IMG/VR virus record: IMGVR_UViG_3300005512_000068
Span: 1 to 45,853 of that record
DNA: 45,853 bases
From: a virus
Lineage: Duplodnaviria; Caudoviricetes
Reading direction: 5' to 3' (one strand)
Program-made: the position numbers and the translations under genes
Notes under the pieces: generated by a model
What the model saw: only the letters and a program-made list of their open reading frames with translations
Databases searched by the model: none
What the model was told of the DNA's origin: nothing
Part shown: positions 1 to 41,027 of the stretch, in pieces
Numbering within the stretch: the stretch's first letter is position 1
Layout: each line of letters starts with the position of its first letter

Positions 1-123
1 ATGGTTACCTCTCCGCTTCAATACTGTTGACGGTGAGGATTACGGTCGTGGCAGAGTCGAAGAGTTTCTAGGTGATCTCAAATCCCTAGAGGCACTGTCT
101 CAAGCACTGGTAGAAGGCTCAGC
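1..123. repeat. Terminal duplication, identical to 45731-45853 (circular assembly overlap)
   Basis: atggttacct...tagaaggctcagc is present at both ends and lies in the middle of the portal ORF. Confidence 0.95.
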
Positions 124-904
124 CGCCGCCGCAAAGGTGGTCTTTGTTGTGTCTCCCTCCAGTACAACCAAGCCAAAGACCATTGCCGACGCTGGTAATG
201 GTGCCATAGTTCAGGGTAGACCTGATGACATTGGTGTCATTCAAGTTGGTAAGACTGCAGATTTTAGAACTGCAGCTGAGATGGCAAACCAGTTAGGCCA
301 ACGAATCAATGATGGATTCTTGGTGCTACAGATCAGGCAAAGTGAAAGGACTACCGCTGAGGAGGTACGCCTAACACAGCTTGAACTTGAACAAGGGTTA
401 GGTGGGATGTTCTCACTGCTAACCGTAGAGTTCTTGGTTCCTTATCTCAACAGGATTATGTTGGTGCTACAACGTAGCAAGCAACTTCCCACCCTACCAA
501 AATCATTGGTAAGACCAACGATCGTTGCTGGTGTAAACGCACTGGGACGTGGGCAAGATAATCAATCGCTCACTCAGTTCATCACTACCATCGCTCAGAC
601 GATGGGACCTGAAACGATCATGCGATTCATCAACCCAGATGAGTATTTGAAACGACTAGCAGCAGCTCAAGGTATTGATGTGCTTAACCTCATCAAGTCT
701 AAAGAAGAGCTGGAGGAAGATATGGGTCAGCAGCAAGAGCAGCAGACACAGATGGAACTCCTTAAGCAAGCTGGTCAGTTCGCTAACTCTCCGATGATGG
801 ATCCAGAAAAGAACCCTGAAGGAATAGAGAGTCTGCAAGATGCGGGAGATGAATTATCAGAAGCCGACCAAGACGCCGCGCAAGGCGGTGGCGAAGAAGG
901 CTGA
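2..904 (+). CDS. Portal / head-tail connector (T7 gp8-like), C-terminal part; continues from 45009 across the junction
   Basis: Frame from nt 2 reads WLPLRFNTVDGEDYGRG, then ERTTAEEVR and ALGRGQD, typical T7-like portal motifs; joined ORF about 541 aa. Confidence 0.93.
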   Translation, partial: WLPLRFNTVDGEDYGRGRVEEFLGDLKSLEALSQALVEGSAAAAKVVFVVSPSSTTKPKTIADAGNGAIVQGRPDDIGVIQVGKTADFRTAAEMANQLGQRINDGFLVLQIRQSERTTAEEVRLTQLELEQGLGGMFSLLTVEFLVPYLNRIMLVLQRSKQLPTLPKSLVRPTIVAGVNALGRGQDNQSLTQFITTIAQTMGPETIMRFINPDEYLKRLAAAQGIDVLNLIKSKEELEEDMGQQQEQQTQMELLKQAGQFANSPMMDPEKNPEGIESLQDAGDELSEADQDAAQGGGEEG

Positions 905-1067
905 ACCTAAAACTGAAGAACAACGTCAAGAAGACAAACAAGTTGGCGTGATGAAATTGCAAGAGAAGTGTGCACCACTGATCGGTCGTAGTGCTAACTA
1001 TGTCGAACGTGTTGGACTTGGTACCTTGCGTGTCATCACAGCTGATGGCTTGGAGGATAATAAATAA
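840..1067 (+). CDS. Hypothetical protein between portal and scaffold
   Basis: 75-aa ORF whose stop overlaps the scaffold ATG (TAATG); true start uncertain. Confidence 0.6.
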   Translation: MREMNYQKPTKTPRKAVAKKAEPKTEEQRQEDKQVGVMKLQEKCAPLIGRSANYVERVGLGTLRVITADGLEDNK

Positions 1068-1870
1068 TGACTACCATGACCTACGATCCCACTCCAGCGG
1101 ATCAACCTGAGTTCTCAGCTGATGAACTCGATTCACTGCAAGTAGGTGAGAACCTGCAGCAAGCTGAAGAACAGCTGTTAGCTGGTAAGTATGAAAATGC
1201 CCAACAACTAGAGAAGGCATACCTTGAACTACAACAAAAGCTCGGCCGCAATGAAGGTGACAGCGATGCCGAAGTCGATGATGCTGAAGATAACTCCGAA
1301 GCGGAAGAGACGGAAGAAGAAGAACTGTCACCAGTGCAGCAAGTAATCCAAGAGGCTTGGGCTGAGTACGATGAAAATGGTGAGCTGAATCCTGAAACTA
1401 TGGAGCAGTTCAAATCCATGAACTCAACTGAATTAGTTGAGGCGTACATGGCTATGCAAGATGCAGCAGATAACAGTCCAGAGATTGGTGGTGAGGTTCG
1501 TGACCTTAGTAATGAGGAAGTGAATCAGATCGTCAACTTTGCAGGTGGTGAAGAGCAGTACTCTGCTATCACTGAATGGGCTGGAGAGAATATGGCTGAG
1601 GCTTATGTCGATGCCTTCGATGCTGTTGTGGATAGTGGTGATCCTGCTGCTATCCAACTTGCACTTGCTGGACTTATGGCTACTTACTACGAACAGAATG
1701 GATATGAAGGTCGGATGTACACCGGCAAGGGTGCAGTTGATCAAGGCGCTCCTGTGTTCCGTTCACAGGCAGAAGTCGTGGCAGCTATGAATGACCCACG
1801 GTATGACAGCGATCCTGCATATCGAAACGATGTGTTTGAAGCACTCGATCGATCGAACATTGATTTTTAA
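1067..1870 (+). CDS. Capsid assembly scaffolding protein (T7 gp9-like)
   Basis: Very acidic; LAGKYENAQQLEKAYLELQQKLG, AGGEEQY..ITEWA and FRSQAEVVAAMNDPRYDSDPAYR motifs; follows portal. Confidence 0.92.
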   Translation: MTTMTYDPTPADQPEFSADELDSLQVGENLQQAEEQLLAGKYENAQQLEKAYLELQQKLGRNEGDSDAEVDDAEDNSEAEETEEEELSPVQQVIQEAWAEYDENGELNPETMEQFKSMNSTELVEAYMAMQDAADNSPEIGGEVRDLSNEEVNQIVNFAGGEEQYSAITEWAGENMAEAYVDAFDAVVDSGDPAAIQLALAGLMATYYEQNGYEGRMYTGKGAVDQGAPVFRSQAEVVAAMNDPRYDSDPAYRNDVFEALDRSNIDF

Positions 1871-1877
1871 TTATTAA

Positions 1878-2933
1878 ATGGCAGCTACTATCACACTACC
1901 AAAGCAGTCCCTTTGGGATCGCTATGTTGAGTGGGTTAGCAGCACTGAGAACCGGCTCTATGTAGGACACTTCGGTGTCCTCATGGTGCCTTGTCTACTG
2001 GCAGCTACCACTTGTTTTATCGTTGCATTTATTGCAGCGCCTCCCGTTGATATTGACGGTATCCGTGAGCCAGTGTCTGGTTCTCTACTCTATGGAAACA
2101 ACATCATCTCTGGAGCAGTCGTCCCAAGCTCCAATGCAATCGGACTACATTTCTATCCCATCTGGGAAGCAGCCAGTCTCGACGAATGGCTATACAACGG
2201 TGGACCCTACCAGCTTGTTGTCTTCCACTTCCTTATCGGTGTCTTCGCTTACATGGGACGGGAATGGGAACTTAGTTATCGACTCGGAATGAGGCCCTGG
2301 ATTTGTGTTGCATACTCAGCTCCAGTCGCCGCCGCCTCTGCGGTCTTCCTTGTATATCCTTTTGGGCAAGGTAGTTTTTCTGATGGTATGCCTCTCGGCA
2401 TATCTGGAACGTTCAACTACATGTTGGTATTCCAAGCTGAACACAATATTCTCATGCATCCTTTCCATATGTTGGGAGTTGCTGGTGTATTTGGTGGCAG
2501 TTTGTTTAGTGCTATGCACGGATCTCTGGTCACAAGCTCGTTGGTTCGTGAAACTACTGAAGCTGAATCTCATAACAAAGGTTATAAGTTCGGCCAAGAA
2601 GAAGAGACGTACAACATCGTAGCCGCACATGGTTACTTCGGACGTTTGATCTTTCAATATGCGTCTTTTAATAATTCACGTAGCCTTCACTTTTTCCTGG
2701 CTGCTTGGCCTGTGGTTGGCATCTGGTTCACTGCGCTTGGTGTCAGCACCATGGCATTTAACCTGAATGGATTTAACTTTAACCAATCTATCCTTGATAG
2801 TAGCAATCGTGTCATTCCTACTTGGGCTGACATCTTGAACCGTCAAGGGTTGGGAATGGAAGTAATGCATGAACGTAATGCTCACAACTTCCCACTTGAT
2901 CTGGCGACACATGAAGCGCCAGCTATCGCTTAA
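1878..2933 (+). CDS. psbA: Photosystem II reaction centre protein D1
   Basis: Unambiguous D1 sequence ([40 protein letters not shown]); Mn-cluster ligands and TyrZ retained. Confidence 0.99.
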
Positions 2934-2954
2934 TTATACAAATTCTTTAATTAC

Positions 2955-3329
2955 ATGTTTAACAAAATCGCTCTTTCCACCCTCGCGGTGTCTTGTTTTG
3001 CTGCTCCCGCTATCGCCGGTCCTTATGTGAACGTCGAAGCTAAGCAGAAATGGTCTGGTGAAGATTACAAATCTGCCACTCTGGAGACGCACGTGGGCTA
3101 TGAAAACAAGCTCGGTGACTCTGCCTCTTGGTATATCCAAGCTGGCCCACAAATCAACTTCCCTGACAACGCTGAGCAAGTCGGCGCTGCCTCTGGCAAA
3201 ACTGGTTTGAAGTTCAAAGTCACTAAGCGCCTGAGTGCATACGGTGAAATCTCTGCTGCTACCAAAGAAGGTATGGAGCTGGAAGGTCTCGGCGTTGGTA
3301 CTAAGGCTGGTCTTAAGTACAAATTCTAA
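2955..3329 (+). CDS. Small secreted outer-membrane beta-barrel-like protein
   Basis: Signal peptide ending AIA|G, alternating amphipathic strands, C-terminal GLKYKF beta-signal; resembles the GPYVNVE family of picocyanobacteria and cyanophages as recalled. Confidence 0.75.
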   Translation: MFNKIALSTLAVSCFAAPAIAGPYVNVEAKQKWSGEDYKSATLETHVGYENKLGDSASWYIQAGPQINFPDNAEQVGAASGKTGLKFKVTKRLSAYGEISAATKEGMELEGLGVGTKAGLKYKF

Positions 3330-3341
3330 ACTTTTAATCCC

Positions 3342-3671
3342 ATGGGAATGGCATACAACCCAAAACTTATTAGTGGGCTGGAGATTCTTTATTGTGTACC
3401 CGTCAACGGTGAATCCAACGCAGCTGTACAAGCTGGTGTGTTGAGTGGTGCTACTGCAATTAGTTCTTCTACCACTCCTGCCAATGGTGTTAGCGCACTT
3501 TCTAAACCATTCATTCCTGTGAATGGTCCTGTCGCCTCTGATGGTGACGGTGCTACTGCTAGTGAAACCTTGGCTGGACAGCGTGCTCAGTGCCTGCGGC
3601 TGGTCGATCGTGACCATGACTCCGATGGCACCAATGAGAGTGTTGGTCTTACTGTGTACGCAAATACATGA
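3342..3671 (+). CDS. Hypothetical protein
   Basis: 109-aa ORF in operon context, overlapping the next start (ATGA). Confidence 0.7.
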   Translation: MGMAYNPKLISGLEILYCVPVNGESNAAVQAGVLSGATAISSSTTPANGVSALSKPFIPVNGPVASDGDGATASETLAGQRAQCLRLVDRDHDSDGTNESVGLTVYANT

Positions 3672-3907
3672 TTGAAGCCGGCATAACCTTGGGCGTAGCT
3701 ATCGTCTCTGGTGTCGGCATTCTTTTTACTCGTGTCAATTCCCGTGTGTCTGATCTAGACAAACGTATTGATACTGTAGAACTCCGTATCGCAGAGAAAT
3801 ACGTACCCAAGGTAGAGCTATCACAAGCTCTATCTCGTGTAGAACAACACATGGTACGCATTGAGAATAAGCTCGATGCAATTATTGGCAAGAACCTTCA
3901 TTGCTGA
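3668..3907 (+). CDS. Small membrane protein (N-terminal TM helix plus coiled coil)
   Basis: IEAGITLGVAIVSGVGILF hydrophobic helix followed by a heptad-like RVEQHMVRIENKLDAII region. Confidence 0.75.
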   Translation: MIEAGITLGVAIVSGVGILFTRVNSRVSDLDKRIDTVELRIAEKYVPKVELSQALSRVEQHMVRIENKLDAIIGKNLHC

Positions 3908-3910
3908 TTC

Positions 3911-3975
3911 GTCCGTTCATCTTGCAGCTACGCTGCTTGACGCATGACGCCTAACTATGGAACGGGAGTTAGGTC
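3911..3975 (+). ncRNA. Glutamine-II (Downstream-peptide) riboswitch
   Basis: P1 CCGTTCA/TGGAACGG; P2 GCAGC-TAC-GCTGC; conserved GACGCA and ATGGAACGGG; pseudoknot CCTAACT/AGTTAGG; immediately upstream of a YRG peptide ORF. Confidence 0.85.
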
Positions 3976-3989
3976 ATTGGAGAAATCCC

Positions 3990-4040
3990 ATGAAGGTGAA
4001 ACTCGTCTATCGTGGTGTGCCTTATACGCGCACTCGCTAA
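3990..4040 (+). CDS. DUF4278-like YRG peptide MKVKLVYRGVPYTRTR (16 aa; not in ORF track)
   Basis: GGAG RBS at 3979, ATG at 3990, TAA ending 4040; L-x-YRGV-x-Y motif typical of peptides following Downstream-peptide RNAs. Confidence 0.8.
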   Translation: MKVKLVYRGVPYTRTR

Positions 4041-4080
4041 ATCTGGTGATTAATGGGAGGTTCGATTCCTCCCTTAGCCA
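4036..4080 (+). other. tRNA-like minihelix (T-arm plus short acceptor-like stem); not a full tRNA
   Basis: GGGAGG-TTCGATT-CCTCCC T-loop hairpin; GCTAA(4036)/TTAGC(4074) pairing; ends ..GCCA. Confidence 0.55.
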
Positions 4081-4170
4081 TTTGGCATTGGCCCGCTGAG
4101 GCGGACACCCTTTGCCGAACCGGTTTGGTAAAGACCATAATTTTTTACCGAAAAAATCTAGCGCTAGGAT
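4081..4170 (+). promoter_or_regulatory. Structured 5' leader of the major capsid gene
   Basis: TTTGGCA/TGCCGAA stem enclosing CCGC-TGAG-GCGG; TTTGGTAAAG/TTTTACCGAA stem; CTAGCGCTAG palindrome. Confidence 0.5.
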
Positions 4171-4200
4171 CAGTTAAATACTTAGAACTATCCTTTAGAA

Positions 4201-5244
4201 ATGGCTAACGCTACTACTACTCCTTTTGGTTCGCTTAACTCGAACCCATCTGCTCTCGAACTGTCTACTTCTTATAACGACGGGAGTACTACAGGTAAGT
4301 ACGCAACTTATCTGAAACTATTTAGTGGTGAAGTTTTCAAAGCATATGAGTCCTCTTGCATTGCTAAGGGCACTGTGCAGAACCGCACTCTTACCAACGG
4401 TAAGTCTATGCAGTTCATCTTCACCGGCCGTATGACGGCTGACTACCACACTCCTGGCACTCCTATCCTGGGTGATGGTAATCCTCCTCTGGCTGAGAAG
4501 ACCATTGTGATGGATGACCTGTTGGTCTCCAGCGCTTTTGTCTACTCGCTCGATGAAACTCTTGCTCACTACGATCTGCGTGGTGAGATCTCCAAGAAGA
4601 TTGGTTATGCACTCGCTGAGGCATACGACAAGAAGATCTTCCGTACCATCGCTAAGGCTGCTCGCGAAGCTCACCCTGTGACTGCTTCTCCTGGTCCTGA
4701 GCCCGGTGGTTCGATCATCCGCTTGGGTGCTAACAACGAGTACAACGCTCAGTCCCTGGTTGACGCCTTCTTCGAAGCTGCTGCAATCCTGGATGAAAAG
4801 AATGTGCCTCGCGAAGGTCGCTTCGCTGTGCTGTCTCCGCGTCAGTACTACGCACTTGTTTCCCAGGTTGATAGCAACATCCTCAACCGTGACTTCGGTG
4901 CCACCTCTGGCAGCCTGAACTCTGGTGAAGGTCTGTATGAGATCGCTGGTATCTCCATCAAGCGCTCTAACAACTTGCCCTTCATGCTCGACGGTACCAG
5001 CTCTGGTTCTGTTGCACAGGTGAGTGGTGAGAACAATGATTACTCTGGTGACTTCCGCACCCACGCTGGTCTGATTTACCAGAAGGATGCTGCTGGTGTG
5101 TTGACCGCTATCGGTCCTCAGGTCCAGACCACCGGAAATGACGTTCGTGCAATGTATCAAGGTGATTTGATCATCGGCCGCTTGGCTATGGGTGCTGGCA
5201 CTCTGAATCCTGCTGCTGCAATCGAACTGCAAGCCGCAGCTTGA
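4201..5244 (+). CDS. Major capsid protein (T7 gp10-like)
   Basis: YLKLFSGEV, RTLTNGKSMQFIFTGR, HTPGTPI, GRLAMGAGTLNPAAAIEL motifs; strongly biased codon use. Confidence 0.97.
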   Translation: MANATTTPFGSLNSNPSALELSTSYNDGSTTGKYATYLKLFSGEVFKAYESSCIAKGTVQNRTLTNGKSMQFIFTGRMTADYHTPGTPILGDGNPPLAEKTIVMDDLLVSSAFVYSLDETLAHYDLRGEISKKIGYALAEAYDKKIFRTIAKAAREAHPVTASPGPEPGGSIIRLGANNEYNAQSLVDAFFEAAAILDEKNVPREGRFAVLSPRQYYALVSQVDSNILNRDFGATSGSLNSGEGLYEIAGISIKRSNNLPFMLDGTSSGSVAQVSGENNDYSGDFRTHAGLIYQKDAAGVLTAIGPQVQTTGNDVRAMYQGDLIIGRLAMGAGTLNPAAAIELQAAA

Positions 5245-5258
5245 TCGGAGGTAGATAG

Positions 5259-5654
5259 ATGCCTCAATTTACTAATCCTGGTATTGGGCTGACTAACTCT
5301 CTGACCCAAGATCCTCTGCGCCCAATTGAATTTGGTCGTGGTGGTAAGAGTGCTGCAGAGGCCTACATCAATGAATCATTGGCTGTTGGTGATGCTCTGG
5401 TTATTCGTGAGCACGGTGCTGATTACACCGCTGCTACTGATGTAGCTACTACGAACGTCACTGAAGCAAACAACACCTACCTTGGAGACCTGTCTCCTGG
5501 TGTTGCTTTGTCGGTTGACACTACTGTCGTTGATGGTCGTGTCACTGCCGCAGTTGTTCGCGACCTGCCTACGACTGATTACCGCCGTGGTGATCTGGTA
5601 AGTGTTGATGGAAACACTGCTGGATCTGCCGATTGTATTCTTATGATTCCTTAG
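5259..5654 (+). CDS. Putative capsid-associated structural protein
   Basis: GGAGG RBS; between the capsid gene and terminator; T/V/D/G-rich beta-type composition. Confidence 0.7.
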   Translation: MPQFTNPGIGLTNSLTQDPLRPIEFGRGGKSAAEAYINESLAVGDALVIREHGADYTAATDVATTNVTEANNTYLGDLSPGVALSVDTTVVDGRVTAAVVRDLPTTDYRRGDLVSVDGNTAGSADCILMIP

Positions 5655-5658
5655 AACT

Positions 5659-6153
5659 ATGCCTTCTGCAAAACGATTTTCTCCGGCAGGCACTCAGTTC
5701 AGCAAAGATACTGCCTACTCCGCTACTACCGTGTATTCACTGACTGGTGATGGTAGTGATGGTGATGGCTCTATGCGCTTCGCCTACAACGGCGGAATGG
5801 AAGGCTCTACGCCTCCCAACGCATACTGCCGTGGTGTCGCTGAAGCTGATGCAACGCCTCCGGCTAGCTCTGAAGCAGCGGCTGTGGACACTGTTGTCCA
5901 AGCTGATGTTTCTTCTGACCTGAATCTTCCTGCTTCTACTGCAACTACTGTTGTTTGTCCTACTCGGACTGTTAGCGGTGAGGGTGCTGGTCTTGTTGTT
6001 CGGTTCGCTACTACGACCGGCACAACTCCTCAGAACAACGCCACTGCTGGCAACTACACCATCATTCACCGTGGCAATGGCTACGCTGATAACGATGTTG
6101 TTGAAATTGTCGGCTTCCCTGGCAGCCGTCTGAACATTAACGGCATCCAGTGA
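5659..6153 (+). CDS. Putative capsid-associated structural protein
   Basis: Same transcript position; GxGLVV...GNGYADNDVVEI beta-domain motif of the kind seen in cyanophage structural proteins. Confidence 0.7.
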   Translation: MPSAKRFSPAGTQFSKDTAYSATTVYSLTGDGSDGDGSMRFAYNGGMEGSTPPNAYCRGVAEADATPPASSEAAAVDTVVQADVSSDLNLPASTATTVVCPTRTVSGEGAGLVVRFATTTGTTPQNNATAGNYTIIHRGNGYADNDVVEIVGFPGSRLNINGIQ

Positions 6154-6162
6154 TGCATACCT

Positions 6163-6190
6163 GGGAGGGCTTCGGCTCTCCCTTTTTTTT
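6163..6190 (+). terminator. Intrinsic terminator after the capsid cluster (T7 T-phi position)
   Basis: GGGAGGGC-TTCG-GCTCTCCC followed by T8. Confidence 0.92.
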
Positions 6191-6213
6191 AATCCTTATT
6201 GATAATCAATAGC

Positions 6214-6864
6214 ATGAGTACATTTACACTCGATAGTGACCTGTCCGCAGTCAATTCAATACTTGCTGCTATTGGTCAAGCTCCTACCACGGCTGCTGCG
6301 CTCGATGATGCGTACACCAACCCAGAGCTGGCTCTCATCTACAACCTCCTGAAAGAGACGACAGTAGATGTGAACAGTGAGGAGTGGCACTACAACACTG
6401 AGAAACACAAAGACTTACAACCTACAGATGTAGGTACTGAGAAACACTTCACCATCCCTGCCAGCGTCTTACGGATGGATGTAAGTAATGGACAAACTAC
6501 TCGGACTACCGATGTAGTGATGAAGCAAGGCAAGCTCTACAACAACGAGAAACATACCTACGATGTGAAGCAGTGGGATGTAAGTAGTTCTGATAACTAC
6601 AAGATGTATTTTGACATTGTATACAACTATGCTTTCACTGAAGTACCAGCTATCTTCCAGCGTTATATTACTCTCCGTGCCAGTCAGCGTGCTGCTACAC
6701 AGCTGGTGTCTAATGCTGAACTCACAAAATTACTAGCCGAACAAGTAGGACTAGCACGAGCAGCTTGTATTGAGTTTGACACTAATCAATCTGACGCCAA
6801 CATGTTTGGTTTTAGCGATCAGAACTACACCGCATATCAACCATTTAGGACTCTTATTCGATGA
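6214..6864 (+). CDS. Tail tubular protein A (T7 gp11-like)
   Basis: LSAVNSILAAIGQAP N-terminus, WHYNTE, VPAIFQRYI motifs; ATG at 6214 preferred over 6199. Confidence 0.92.
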   Translation: MSTFTLDSDLSAVNSILAAIGQAPTTAAALDDAYTNPELALIYNLLKETTVDVNSEEWHYNTEKHKDLQPTDVGTEKHFTIPASVLRMDVSNGQTTRTTDVVMKQGKLYNNEKHTYDVKQWDVSSSDNYKMYFDIVYNYAFTEVPAIFQRYITLRASQRAATQLVSNAELTKLLAEQVGLARAACIEFDTNQSDANMFGFSDQNYTAYQPFRTLIR

Positions 6865-39198: not shown

Positions 39199-39289
39199 TT
39201 CAAACATTACTGATACCAGTGAGTTTGAATCTAATCTCGACAATATTCTTGCAGAACCTTACAACCCAAGTGAAGGTTCTGAATACTAA
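39143..39289 (+). CDS. Small lipoprotein (48 aa; not in ORF track)
   Basis: MKKLLLSLTVLMTLLIG|CSSN: basic N-region, hydrophobic core, LIGC lipobox; stop overlaps the DNA polymerase ATG. Confidence 0.72.
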   Translation: MKKLLLSLTVLMTLLIGCSSNITDTSEFESNLDNILAEPYNPSEGSEY

Positions 39290-39804
39290 TGCTCATCTTC
39301 GATATCGAAACGGATGGTTTATACCGTGATGTTTCCACAATCCACTGCGTCGTCATTCATGATACGGAAGATCAATCAACGATTCGATATAACGACAAGG
39401 GAAATCATGAACCGATTTCCTCTGCTGTCACGCGCTTGGAAGGTGCGGATTGTATATCCGGCCATAATGTCATCAATTACGACATTCCAGTTATCAAGAA
39501 GTTCTATAGCTTCTTTGAGCCTACTGGTACCGTTGTCGATACTTTATTGCTTAGCCGTCTATACCATCCCAACCTTCTTGAAATAGACAAGAAGCATAAC
39601 TGGAAGCATATGCCTTTGCAGCTGTATGGCCGCCACTCCTTGGAGGCATATGGATATCGAGTAGGTGAGTACAAAGGATCATTCTCCAAGAGCACAGATT
39701 GGAAAGAATGGTCGCAAGAAATGGAAGATTACTGTGCACAAGACGTTACTGTTACCACCAAATTATGCGATCACTTCCAGCCTTACCTGAATGGGTCACG
39801 CTAG
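39289..39804 (+). CDS. DNA polymerase A, 3'-5' exonuclease domain (split gene, part 1)
   Basis: ExoI FDIETDG, ExoII GHNVINYD, HSLEAYGYR, ExoIII YCAQDV. Confidence 0.92.
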   Translation: MLIFDIETDGLYRDVSTIHCVVIHDTEDQSTIRYNDKGNHEPISSAVTRLEGADCISGHNVINYDIPVIKKFYSFFEPTGTVVDTLLLSRLYHPNLLEIDKKHNWKHMPLQLYGRHSLEAYGYRVGEYKGSFSKSTDWKEWSQEMEDYCAQDVTVTTKLCDHFQPYLNGSR

Positions 39805-41027
39805 AACATCAGGTCGCGCAGATACTTACAGAACAGGAGATTCATGGATGGTATTTCTCTGAGCGATGTGGGCGAGAACTTGAGCTATCTCTCAGACGAG
39901 AGCTTCTCGATCTTACTCAAGTACTTCAGGCAAGGTTCCCTTACGTCCCAGGAGCAGAGTTTACTCCGAGACGAAATAACCGAACTTCAGGATATGTGGA
40001 AGGAGCTACATTTCAAAGACTAAAAGAATTTAACCCTGCATCTAGAGATCATATAGCATGGATCCTGACGAACTACGACAACTTCGAGAGTCATTCGACT
40101 ACATCGACTTCTGGGAAAACGAAGATCGACGAACCGATTTTGAAGAGCCATGGAACTGGGCTTTCCCTACAGTTCTTGAGGATCTTGGAGATTACGAAGC
40201 TCCTTGGGATGATATCGGAAGGCGCCAACGCATGGCTGAAGCTATGTACGAGTGCTAAACGTATTCATCACCACTGTTCCGTAGCTACTGCGACTCATAG
40301 AGCAGCCCACCGGTCACCAAATTTAGCCCAAGTACCTAGTGACGAACGAGTACGAAAATTATTTATGGCGTCTCCGGGTCAAGTTATGGTCGGCGCTGAT
40401 CTTGCTGGCATTGAGCTTCGGATGCTTGCTCACTATCTTGCCCGTTACGACGGTGGGAGATACGGAGAAATCCTCCTCAACGGTGACATTCACCAAGTTA
40501 ATGCTGATGCCATTGGTGTAGATAGAAAGACCGTCAAAGGAATTTCCTATTGTTTCATCTATGGAGGAGGCGATGTTAAATTAGGCCTAACTTATGATAA
40601 GCAGCTTACAACCACCCACGCTAAACAAAAAGGCGCTGAAATTAGAGCAGCGTTTGTTAGTGCAATTCCTGGACTTTCTGATTTACTTGATGCGATTAAA
40701 GGTGCGAGCAATCGTGGCTATATCAAGTCGATTGACGGACGCAAGATCATCCTTGATTCGCCGCATAAAGCACTCAACTACTTATTACAATCGGGAGCAG
40801 GCGTTGTTGCGAAGCGATGGATGGTTTTAGCCCATGAAAATCCATTTTGCTGTAGCCAACTAGCGTTTATACATGACGAACTCCAATACGAATGTTCACC
40901 CGAACATGCAGAAGATCTACGATTTCATTTGGAATGGAGCGCAGTCAGAGCAGGAGAATATTACGGACTCAGAGTTCCTATTGCTGCTGAAGGAAAGATC
41001 GGTGATAACTGGGCCGATGTACATTAA
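39765..41027 (+). CDS. DNA polymerase A, polymerase domain (split gene, part 2; T7 gp5-like)
   Basis: PNLAQVP, motif A DLAGIELR, motif B RKTVKGISYCFIYG, motif C IHDE; in the -1 frame relative to part 1. Confidence 0.95.
   Translation: MRSLPALPEWVTLEHQVAQILTEQEIHGWYFSERCGRELELSLRRELLDLTQVLQARFPYVPGAEFTPRRNNRTSGYVEGATFQRLKEFNPASRDHIAWILTNYDNFESHSTTSTSGKTKIDEPILKSHGTGLSLQFLRILEITKLLGMISEGANAWLKLCTSAKRIHHHCSVATATHRAAHRSPNLAQVPSDERVRKLFMASPGQVMVGADLAGIELRMLAHYLARYDGGRYGEILLNGDIHQVNADAIGVDRKTVKGISYCFIYGGGDVKLGLTYDKQLTTTHAKQKGAEIRAAFVSAIPGLSDLLDAIKGASNRGYIKSIDGRKIILDSPHKALNYLLQSGAGVVAKRWMVLAHENPFCCSQLAFIHDELQYECSPEHAEDLRFHLEWSAVRAGEYYGLRVPIAAEGKIGDNWADVH

Follow-up and report, generated by a model that had tools for sequence, protein, structure and literature searches.

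The intergenic gap in front of the major capsid protein gene of this virus probably holds two separate units, a glutamine-switched peptide and a tRNA-shaped element that would be cut by RNase Z to form the 5′ end of the capsid mRNA. The stretch of DNA analysed, referred to here as the window, is 45,853 nucleotides long and covers a virus record that is complete and carries terminal repeats. The riboswitch and its peptide do not seem to serve as a control device for the capsid. The tRNA mimic and the leader that follows it form the more valuable result, which suggests a tRNA-type punctuation of the transcript with a prediction at the level of a single nucleotide.

Genome setting and organization of the locus

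The gene set of the window is that of a T7-like cyanopodovirus, with portal, scaffold, psbA, capsid, tail tube, terminase, integrase and single-subunit RNA polymerase genes, and among named phages S-CBP4, S-CBP3, S-CBP1 and S-SRP01 match it most closely over the capsid region. The source is an ocean T7-like cyanopodovirus infecting cyanobacteria. Its psbA gene is located in a host-derived island between the scaffold and capsid genes. The features of the locus are the following:

1878–2933, + strand, psbA (photosystem II D1), phrog_182, E 4e-190
2955–3329, + strand, Phage_OMP gene (PF24653)
3668–3907, + strand, ORF of 79 amino acids (stop codon 3905–3907), phrog_12220
3911–3974, + strand, Glutamine-II (type 2, Downstream-peptide) aptamer, RF01704 37.6 bits, core bases compared with PMC6698751
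3979–3982, + strand, Shine-Dalgarno sequence GGAG, 7 nt before the peptide ATG
3990–4040, + strand, 16-codon YRG micro-ORF, similar to DUF4278 and the IF17 N-terminus by motif alignment
4035–4080, + strand, tRNA-elbow mimic without an anticodon arm, with relatives having whole tRNAs in this register
4081–4200, + strand, uncatalogued capsid leader, supported by covariation, no Rfam match at E≤10
4201–5244, + strand, T7-like major capsid protein gene, phrog_267, E 2e-77, with matches to named cyanopodoviruses

The gap between the stop codon of the 79-residue ORF and the capsid ATG at 4201 is 293 nt long, and two structured elements, the tRNA-elbow mimic and the capsid leader, fill its part from 4035 to 4200. 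The stop codon of the 79-residue ORF lies 3 nt before the aptamer, so the gap there leaves no room for a separate promoter. The Phage_OMP gene, located upstream of the gap in the window, comes directly after the riboswitch-peptide cassette in other genomes. The capsid gene is followed by two ORFs without a confident family match (5259–5654 and 5659–6153), behind which there is a strong terminator-like hairpin at 6163–6182. The DNA polymerase of the window is found in two overlapping ORFs, 39289–39804 (exonuclease part) and 39699–41027 (polymerase part), which reflect a frameshift, a natural split or an assembly error.

tRNA-elbow mimic and its equivalents

The mimic consists of an acceptor-like helix (4036–4040/4074–4078) with the stop codon of the peptide inside it, a D-like TGG at 4044–4046, a T stem of 6 bp (4055–4060/4068–4073), a T loop at 4061–4067 and a discriminator-equivalent A4080. 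The predicted processing site lies between 4080 and 4081. A full tRNA gene in the window was considered and rejected, as ARAGORN finds none and only 14 nt separate the acceptor-like strand from the T stem. The segment 4035–4200 has no Rfam match at E≤10, and a literature search, which covered mostly papers outside subscription, returned no description of the mimic, of the leader or of the riboswitch position before the capsid gene.

The slot in front of the capsid gene is occupied in phages with and without the cassette. Either the T-loop motif or an alternative hairpin was found in 69/69 capsid-anchored loci, these being the loci, out of 80, whose DNA extends 300 nt or more upstream of the capsid gene, and in 14/15 isolates by pattern, the variant of P60 being recognised by eye. 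The distance to the leader is nearly constant: C61 precedes the conserved TTG of the leader by 13–14 nt in 47/49 T-loop elements, and the alternative hairpin is placed 11 nt from the TTG in 54/58. When the alternative hairpin, which is not tRNA-like in appearance, was searched for alone, the capsid gene came next in 76/80 loci and the remaining 4 were too short.

This alternative hairpin, whose loop has a conserved motif of 17 nt, takes the place of the tRNA mimic in roughly half of the phages and occurs in ~1200 viral stretches; examples are L001 (S-CBP4), where it lies ~174 nt before the capsid gene, and L327–L406. Over the 230 nt preceding its capsid gene, one locus, L124, shows neither the T-loop hairpin nor the alternative hairpin.

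In six loci (L052, L069, L077, L078, L083 and NATL1A-7) a whole tRNA, detected by ARAGORN, fills the capsid slot. Five of them come from 51 loci scanned, and the sixth is the annotated tRNA-Gly of NATL1A-7; L149 has one tRNA elsewhere. The six are called as Trp, Gly and irregular Cys/Leu, some of them with irregular anticodon arms. All of them lack CCA, and in each the discriminator directly abuts the first bases of the leader, TTG. The tRNA-like genes with irregular anticodon arms found in the capsid slot (L052:2842–2912, L069:3283–3355, L083:2608–2677 and L068:345–420) may be intermediate forms linking tRNA and mimic.

The bases G53, T54, C56, A58 and C61 are present in 43/43 elements, although they formed part of the search pattern. 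Similarly, in 20 sequences picked by hand the T stem shows 100% pairing and 14 double changes, the scripts having selected T stems for pairing. Covariation is also seen at the 18:55 elbow position: G55 is accompanied by AG in the D loop in 28/31 elements and by GG in none, and T55 by GG in 11/18, in sequences that are not independent; four T55 elements were called AG, and 6 elements gave no call. In individual sequences the acceptor-like helix is a weak one. It was not above its control in a first test (21 vs 28 of 47), and a stricter test gave a median shuffle p of 0.11, with 18/49 at or below 0.1 and 28 different strand pairs. In the window this helix lies 1.6–2.6 kcal/mol above competing folds. 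As judged from the register, a cut by RNase P between 4034 and 4035, the tRNA +1 position, would remove the stop codon of the peptide and yield a non-stop message.

Capsid leader

The leader contains a 5′ stem at 4082–4117 with an inner hairpin, and a second hairpin at about 4122–4136. Its first stem starts at the predicted cut. Over 69 sequences and 12 pairs of the leader, 90.4% of the cells are paired, with 100 double changes; this pairing was matched by 0/500 shuffles, and slid registers reached at most 50%. A U-G pair is kept in 56/69 sequences. The gene downstream of the leader is that of the major capsid protein (phrog_267), as stated in the original prediction. Its ATG in the window is preceded by no Shine-Dalgarno sequence, and SD-like words occur before only 2/97 capsid starts.

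Perfect palindromes are found in the leader of the window at 4118–4125 and 4158–4167, and 86/87 leaders contain one of at least 8 bases, of varying sequence (mean 2.2 vs 0.47 in shuffled leaders). They could be self-complementary loops or DNA cruciforms.

A different origin of the capsid mRNA would be a promoter of its own within 4081–4200, read by the host sigma-70 enzyme or by the phage RNA polymerase, the tRNA-like element then serving only to end or stabilise the upstream transcript. In T7, a promoter precedes gene 10, the temporal boundary of P-SSP7 transcription falls at this place, and there is a sigma-70-like site at 4112–4141. However, 4 sigma-70-like sites were found where 4.9 are expected by chance, alignment A1 shows no conservation of the −10 hexamer, and the genome contains no second copy of any 16-mer from the gap at fewer than 2 mismatches. 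What is conserved is the pairing, the U-G pair among it, which points to RNA, and the exact register with tRNA 3′ ends would be left unexplained by a promoter. A dedicated capsid promoter is thus unlikely, and processing at the mimic is the preferred reading.

Relationship between the cassette and the capsid gene

The original prediction placed the aptamer and its peptide in the late operon as a cassette which may tune capsid output to host nitrogen. The spacing of the elements does not bear this out, since the aptamer is locked to the start of the peptide and not to the capsid gene, which has a conserved upstream unit of its own both where the riboswitch is present and where it is absent. The distance from G41 of the aptamer to the peptide start is 21–29 nt in 102/102 distinct cassettes and 22–26 nt in 94 of them, within the 18–44 nt downstream of the aptamer that the spacing script covered; in the window, the ATG lies 24 nt after G41. 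The distance to the capsid gene varies. Among 57 YRG cassettes drawn from 80 pattern-derived loci, the capsid gene is within 330 nt in 23 and further away in 16, while the Phage_OMP gene comes first in 9, another gene in 3, and 6 are too short.

The expected synteny with the capsid gene across relatives is therefore frequent and no more than that: about half of them have no cassette, and the aptamers of P-SSP10 and NATL1A-7 lie 1261 nt and 1383 nt from the capsid gene, respectively, with other genes between. Matches to RF01704 were found in 22/50 records (47 of the 80 capsid loci and 3 isolates), 16 of them over the cut-off and six below, and in 1/6 near-complete IMG/VR records; among the 61 loci with enough DNA, 30 have a YRG ORF no more than 900 nt from the capsid gene. 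By pattern, the cassette was not found in Syn5, P60, S-CBP2, S-CBP42, S-SRP01 and S-B28, with a pattern that under-calls and missed S-SBP1 and S-CBP3, both of which show a YRG ORF. It is present in many isolates of both host genera.

The aptamer pattern is also loose. In GTDB genomes most of its 120 matches are chance ones and 5 are Prochlorococcus cassettes; in viral contigs 88/120 matches have a YRG ORF, so that an estimate of ~2500 stretches overstates the true copies. The metagenomic loci are related, so that locus counts are not counts of independent events. The patchy and movable presence indicates that the cassette is an accessory cargo of the scaffold-capsid island.

Two phages assigned to Voetvirus, S-TIP28 (L456) and Syn5 (L204), have near letter-identical T-loop elements, and only S-TIP28 carries the riboswitch cassette. 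Genes observed between the YRG peptide and the capsid gene include those of an HNH endonuclease (L124:1687–2031) and of a 2OG-Fe(II) oxygenase (L152:767–1378).

A less direct coupling of nitrogen to the capsid can be envisaged, in which glutamine turns on translation of the peptide and the terminating ribosome melts the acceptor helix of the mimic, changing processing and the level of capsid mRNA. The speed at which capsid mRNA matures would then depend on host nitrogen, through ribosome-gated processing of the tRNA type in about half of the T7-like cyanophages. The position of the peptide stop codon within the acceptor-like helix (4036–4040), 15–25 nt before G53 in 52/54 cassettes, is in agreement with such coupling, as is the commonest position of the cassette, which is that of the final unit ahead of the capsid leader (the 23/57 within 330 nt). 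In the window, moreover, the strand that would be freed, 4074–4083, is a 10-nt perfect complement of the capsid start region 4198–4207 and can pair with it at −12.8 kcal/mol. Against this, the mimic also abuts or overlaps the ends of unrelated upstream genes where there is no cassette (L023, P60), and the cassette is missing in about half of the relatives and ~1.3 kb away in some. The pairing with the capsid start was rejected as a conserved feature, being private to the window genome (1/43 loci; mean −4.07 vs −4.10 when permuted); the capsid start of L007 differs. Both the ribosome-gated step and the nitrogen-set maturation rate that it would imply are unlikely, and two separate units are the preferred reading.

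Glutamine-II aptamer

A search of the whole window with cmscan gave a sole match at the gathering threshold, RF01704 Glutamine-II, at 3911–3974 on the + strand (37.6 bits vs a cut-off of 33, E 1e-5, model positions 1–60), which confirms the complete Downstream-peptide-type fold recognised in the gap by the original prediction. There is a single copy in the complete genome, and the control was positive in 0/14 genomes. The pseudoknot helix PK is formed by 3914–3918/3960–3964 together with C3943:G3965, P1 spans 3920–3940 and includes two U-U mismatches, and P2 is formed by 3949–3957/3966–3974. All three helices named earlier exist, but under other labels: in the naming of PMC6698751 the former “P1” is PK, the former “P2” is P1 and the former “pseudoknot” is P2.

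Compared by the crystal numbering of PMC6698751, 18/18 positions of the aptamer core carry the expected base (C1, G2, U3, U4, C5, A6, C17, G18, C19, A33 and G35–G42), among them the nucleotides of the ligand contacts and of the pseudoknot (C1, G2, G18, C19, A33 and G35–G42). Changing C1, G18 or C39 abolished binding according to PMC6698751, and all three match in the window. Glutamine binding was measured by ITC for other members of the class (PMC6698751), and the MED4 copy is described as raising reporter output after addition of ammonium (PMC6212724). By analogy, the copy in the window would bind glutamine and act in the ON direction.

A hairpin at 3975–3992 is predicted to enclose GGAG and the AUG of the peptide. 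No switching mechanism was found with ViennaRNA, where, with the pseudoknot left out, this hairpin appears in free and bound-like folds alike. There is no NtcA box in positions 1–6500 of the window and no terminator-like site in 3908–4200, so the phage cassette is likely to be on a read-through transcript and to act only on translation.

The RNA class, the peptide family and one occurrence in a cyanopodovirus are already on record. This aptamer was linked to DUF4278, IF17-like ORFs in PMC6212724, and the copy of P-SSP7 (NC_006882), which occupies the same slot before the capsid gene, is a row of the founding 2010 motif alignment in the supplement of PMC2864571; what the original prediction gave for the class, that it precedes DUF4278/YRG peptides and is known in cyanophages, is in line with these sources.

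YRG micro-peptide

The predicted ribosome binding site and 16-codon ORF were both found: GGAG at 3979–3982 is followed by an ATG at 3990 and a TAA at 4038–4040, and the ORF encodes the peptide MKVKLVYRGVPYTRTR. It contains no Gln codon and keeps the LxYRGxxY motif when aligned with 33 phage and host peptides. It ends 4 residues past the motif, and the C-terminal glutamine synthetase (GS)-binding region of IF17 is absent. This region is called crucial in PMC6212724, where the products of the DUF4278 IF17-like ORFs are described as lacking it, and the DUF4278 part of IF17 is reported in PMC6316151 to be dispensable for inhibiting glutamine synthetase.

Across 102 distinct cassettes the peptide has 13–58 residues with a median of 19, and the 16-mer is therefore typical and not unusually bare. 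Residues L22 and Y29 are invariant in 34/34 aligned peptides, in which the mean column identity is 41% and YRG was the selection criterion. A 27-residue in-frame extension of the window peptide has no Pfam match, and 25/33 longer relatives match PF14105 (DUF4278) weakly (E≤0.1; best 7e-8). A profile search of the PDB with the YRG peptides gave no match (best E 5.9), and in the ESM Atlas they fall in unnamed clusters, with DUF4278 only a weak lead. A more host-like form, a peptide of 60 residues with two YRG motifs, lies behind two aptamer-like matches at L153:1567–1746.

An attenuator leader peptide is ruled against by the lack of a Gln codon and of a terminator-like site in 3908–4200. The role as a bare-motif leader peptide, suggested earlier, is not supported, as the LxYRGxxY motif is kept, the 16-mer is of typical length and the YRG peptide is also found in stand-alone host units. 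Together with the weak DUF4278 matches, the missing Gln codon and the kept motif are more compatible with a trans-acting product, and the second option of the original prediction, a peptide with an effect on the host, is a better fit than either dedicated capsid control or a leader role.

That the cassette is a neutral or decaying host-derived passenger, with an aptamer that no longer switches or a peptide without a role, is very unlikely, since its patchy presence, the six records below the cut-off, the apparently broken YRG frame of L012, the lack of a predicted expression platform and the dispensability of the DUF4278 part of IF17 are set against an intact ligand-binding core, the two invariant residues, a fixed aptamer-peptide spacing and occurrence in many isolates of both host genera.

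Proposed mechanism

In the proposed mechanism, transcription would read through from the psbA island across the gap. High host glutamine would cause the aptamer to switch on translation of the YRG peptide, the ON direction being taken from the MED4 reporter of PMC6212724, and the peptide would act in trans. A host tRNA-processing nuclease, likely RNase Z, would cut after A4080, giving the capsid mRNA its own 5′ end, which begins in a stem, and the first stem of the leader would protect this new end. The riboswitch cassette would stay on the upstream piece of RNA, and after the cut capsid output would be shielded from the riboswitch. The cleavage, the nuclease responsible and the protection of the 5′ end are all inferred.

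Cyanobacteria encode both RNase Z and RNase P, and RNase Z cuts tRNA precursors to give the 3′ end for CCA addition (PMC10989914). In Syn5, over 37 kb were reported to be transcribed from one promoter (PMC3950665). The boundary between middle and late transcription in P-SSP7 is placed between genes 28 and 29 (PMC7885011, quoting Lindell 2007); gene 29 is the capsid gene, and the boundary therefore falls in the gap before it. The single-promoter transcription of Syn5 and the boundary of P-SSP7 both fit processing before the capsid gene.

Comparison with known systems

The Glutamine-II/DUF4278 units of marine picocyanobacterial hosts, for example yfr6 of MED4 (PMC2864571, PMC6212724, PMC6698751), share with the phage copy the aptamer core, the helices and the short distance to the YRG ORF. 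In Prochlorococcus, 4/5 host copies are, as judged by eye, preceded by an NtcA-type box and followed by a terminator-like hairpin. The phage copy, in contrast, has neither box nor terminator, encodes a one-motif peptide of 16 residues and is placed inside a phage operon.

Glutamine-I riboswitches (glnA, RF01739) have been described in the T4-like marine phages S-CREM1 and Melnitz (PMC9964418, PMC9004378). These are likewise phage-borne glutamine aptamers with a proposed function in nitrogen sensing, but they differ from the copy in the window in aptamer class, phage family and neighbouring genes.

A tRNA, or a reduced tRNA shape, that marks a nuclease cut defining the end of the neighbouring RNA is known from several systems, including mitochondrial tRNA punctuation, plant mitochondrial t-elements and the mascRNA of MALAT1. 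The likeness of the phage element to these signals is in the T loop, which is kept, in a putative stack of ~12 bp, and in the anticodon arm, which is lost or irregular. Unlike them, it is found in a bacteriophage, before a capsid gene, and in three interchangeable forms (a mini-tRNA, a whole tRNA and an unrelated hairpin), with a cleavage that is predicted.

Gene 10 of T7 has the phi10 promoter, a 5′ stem-loop and a strong Shine-Dalgarno sequence, with RNase III sites elsewhere. As in T7, a dedicated structured 5′ region separates the capsid gene from the genes upstream. Unlike in T7, no repeated phage promoter was found here, and SD-like words are nearly absent before the capsid starts (the 2/97 given above).

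Biological significance

The riboswitch cassette is a common and usually unannotated phage copy of a nitrogen-responsive host unit, and it offers a deletion test for the function of DUF4278 peptides. If ribosome-gated processing were true, it would be a case of a riboswitch acting through tRNA-type maturation on virion output.

T7-like cyanophages are abundant, and they kill marine picocyanobacteria. They overproduce capsid protein with a very small number of promoters and no Shine-Dalgarno sequence, for which no explanation was found in the literature searched. Suitable phages are at hand, with genetics in S-TIP37 and Syn5 and transcriptomes in P-SSP7 and S-SBP1, and a tRNA mimic cut at one predicted nucleotide would be a precise and testable answer to how the capsid is overproduced.
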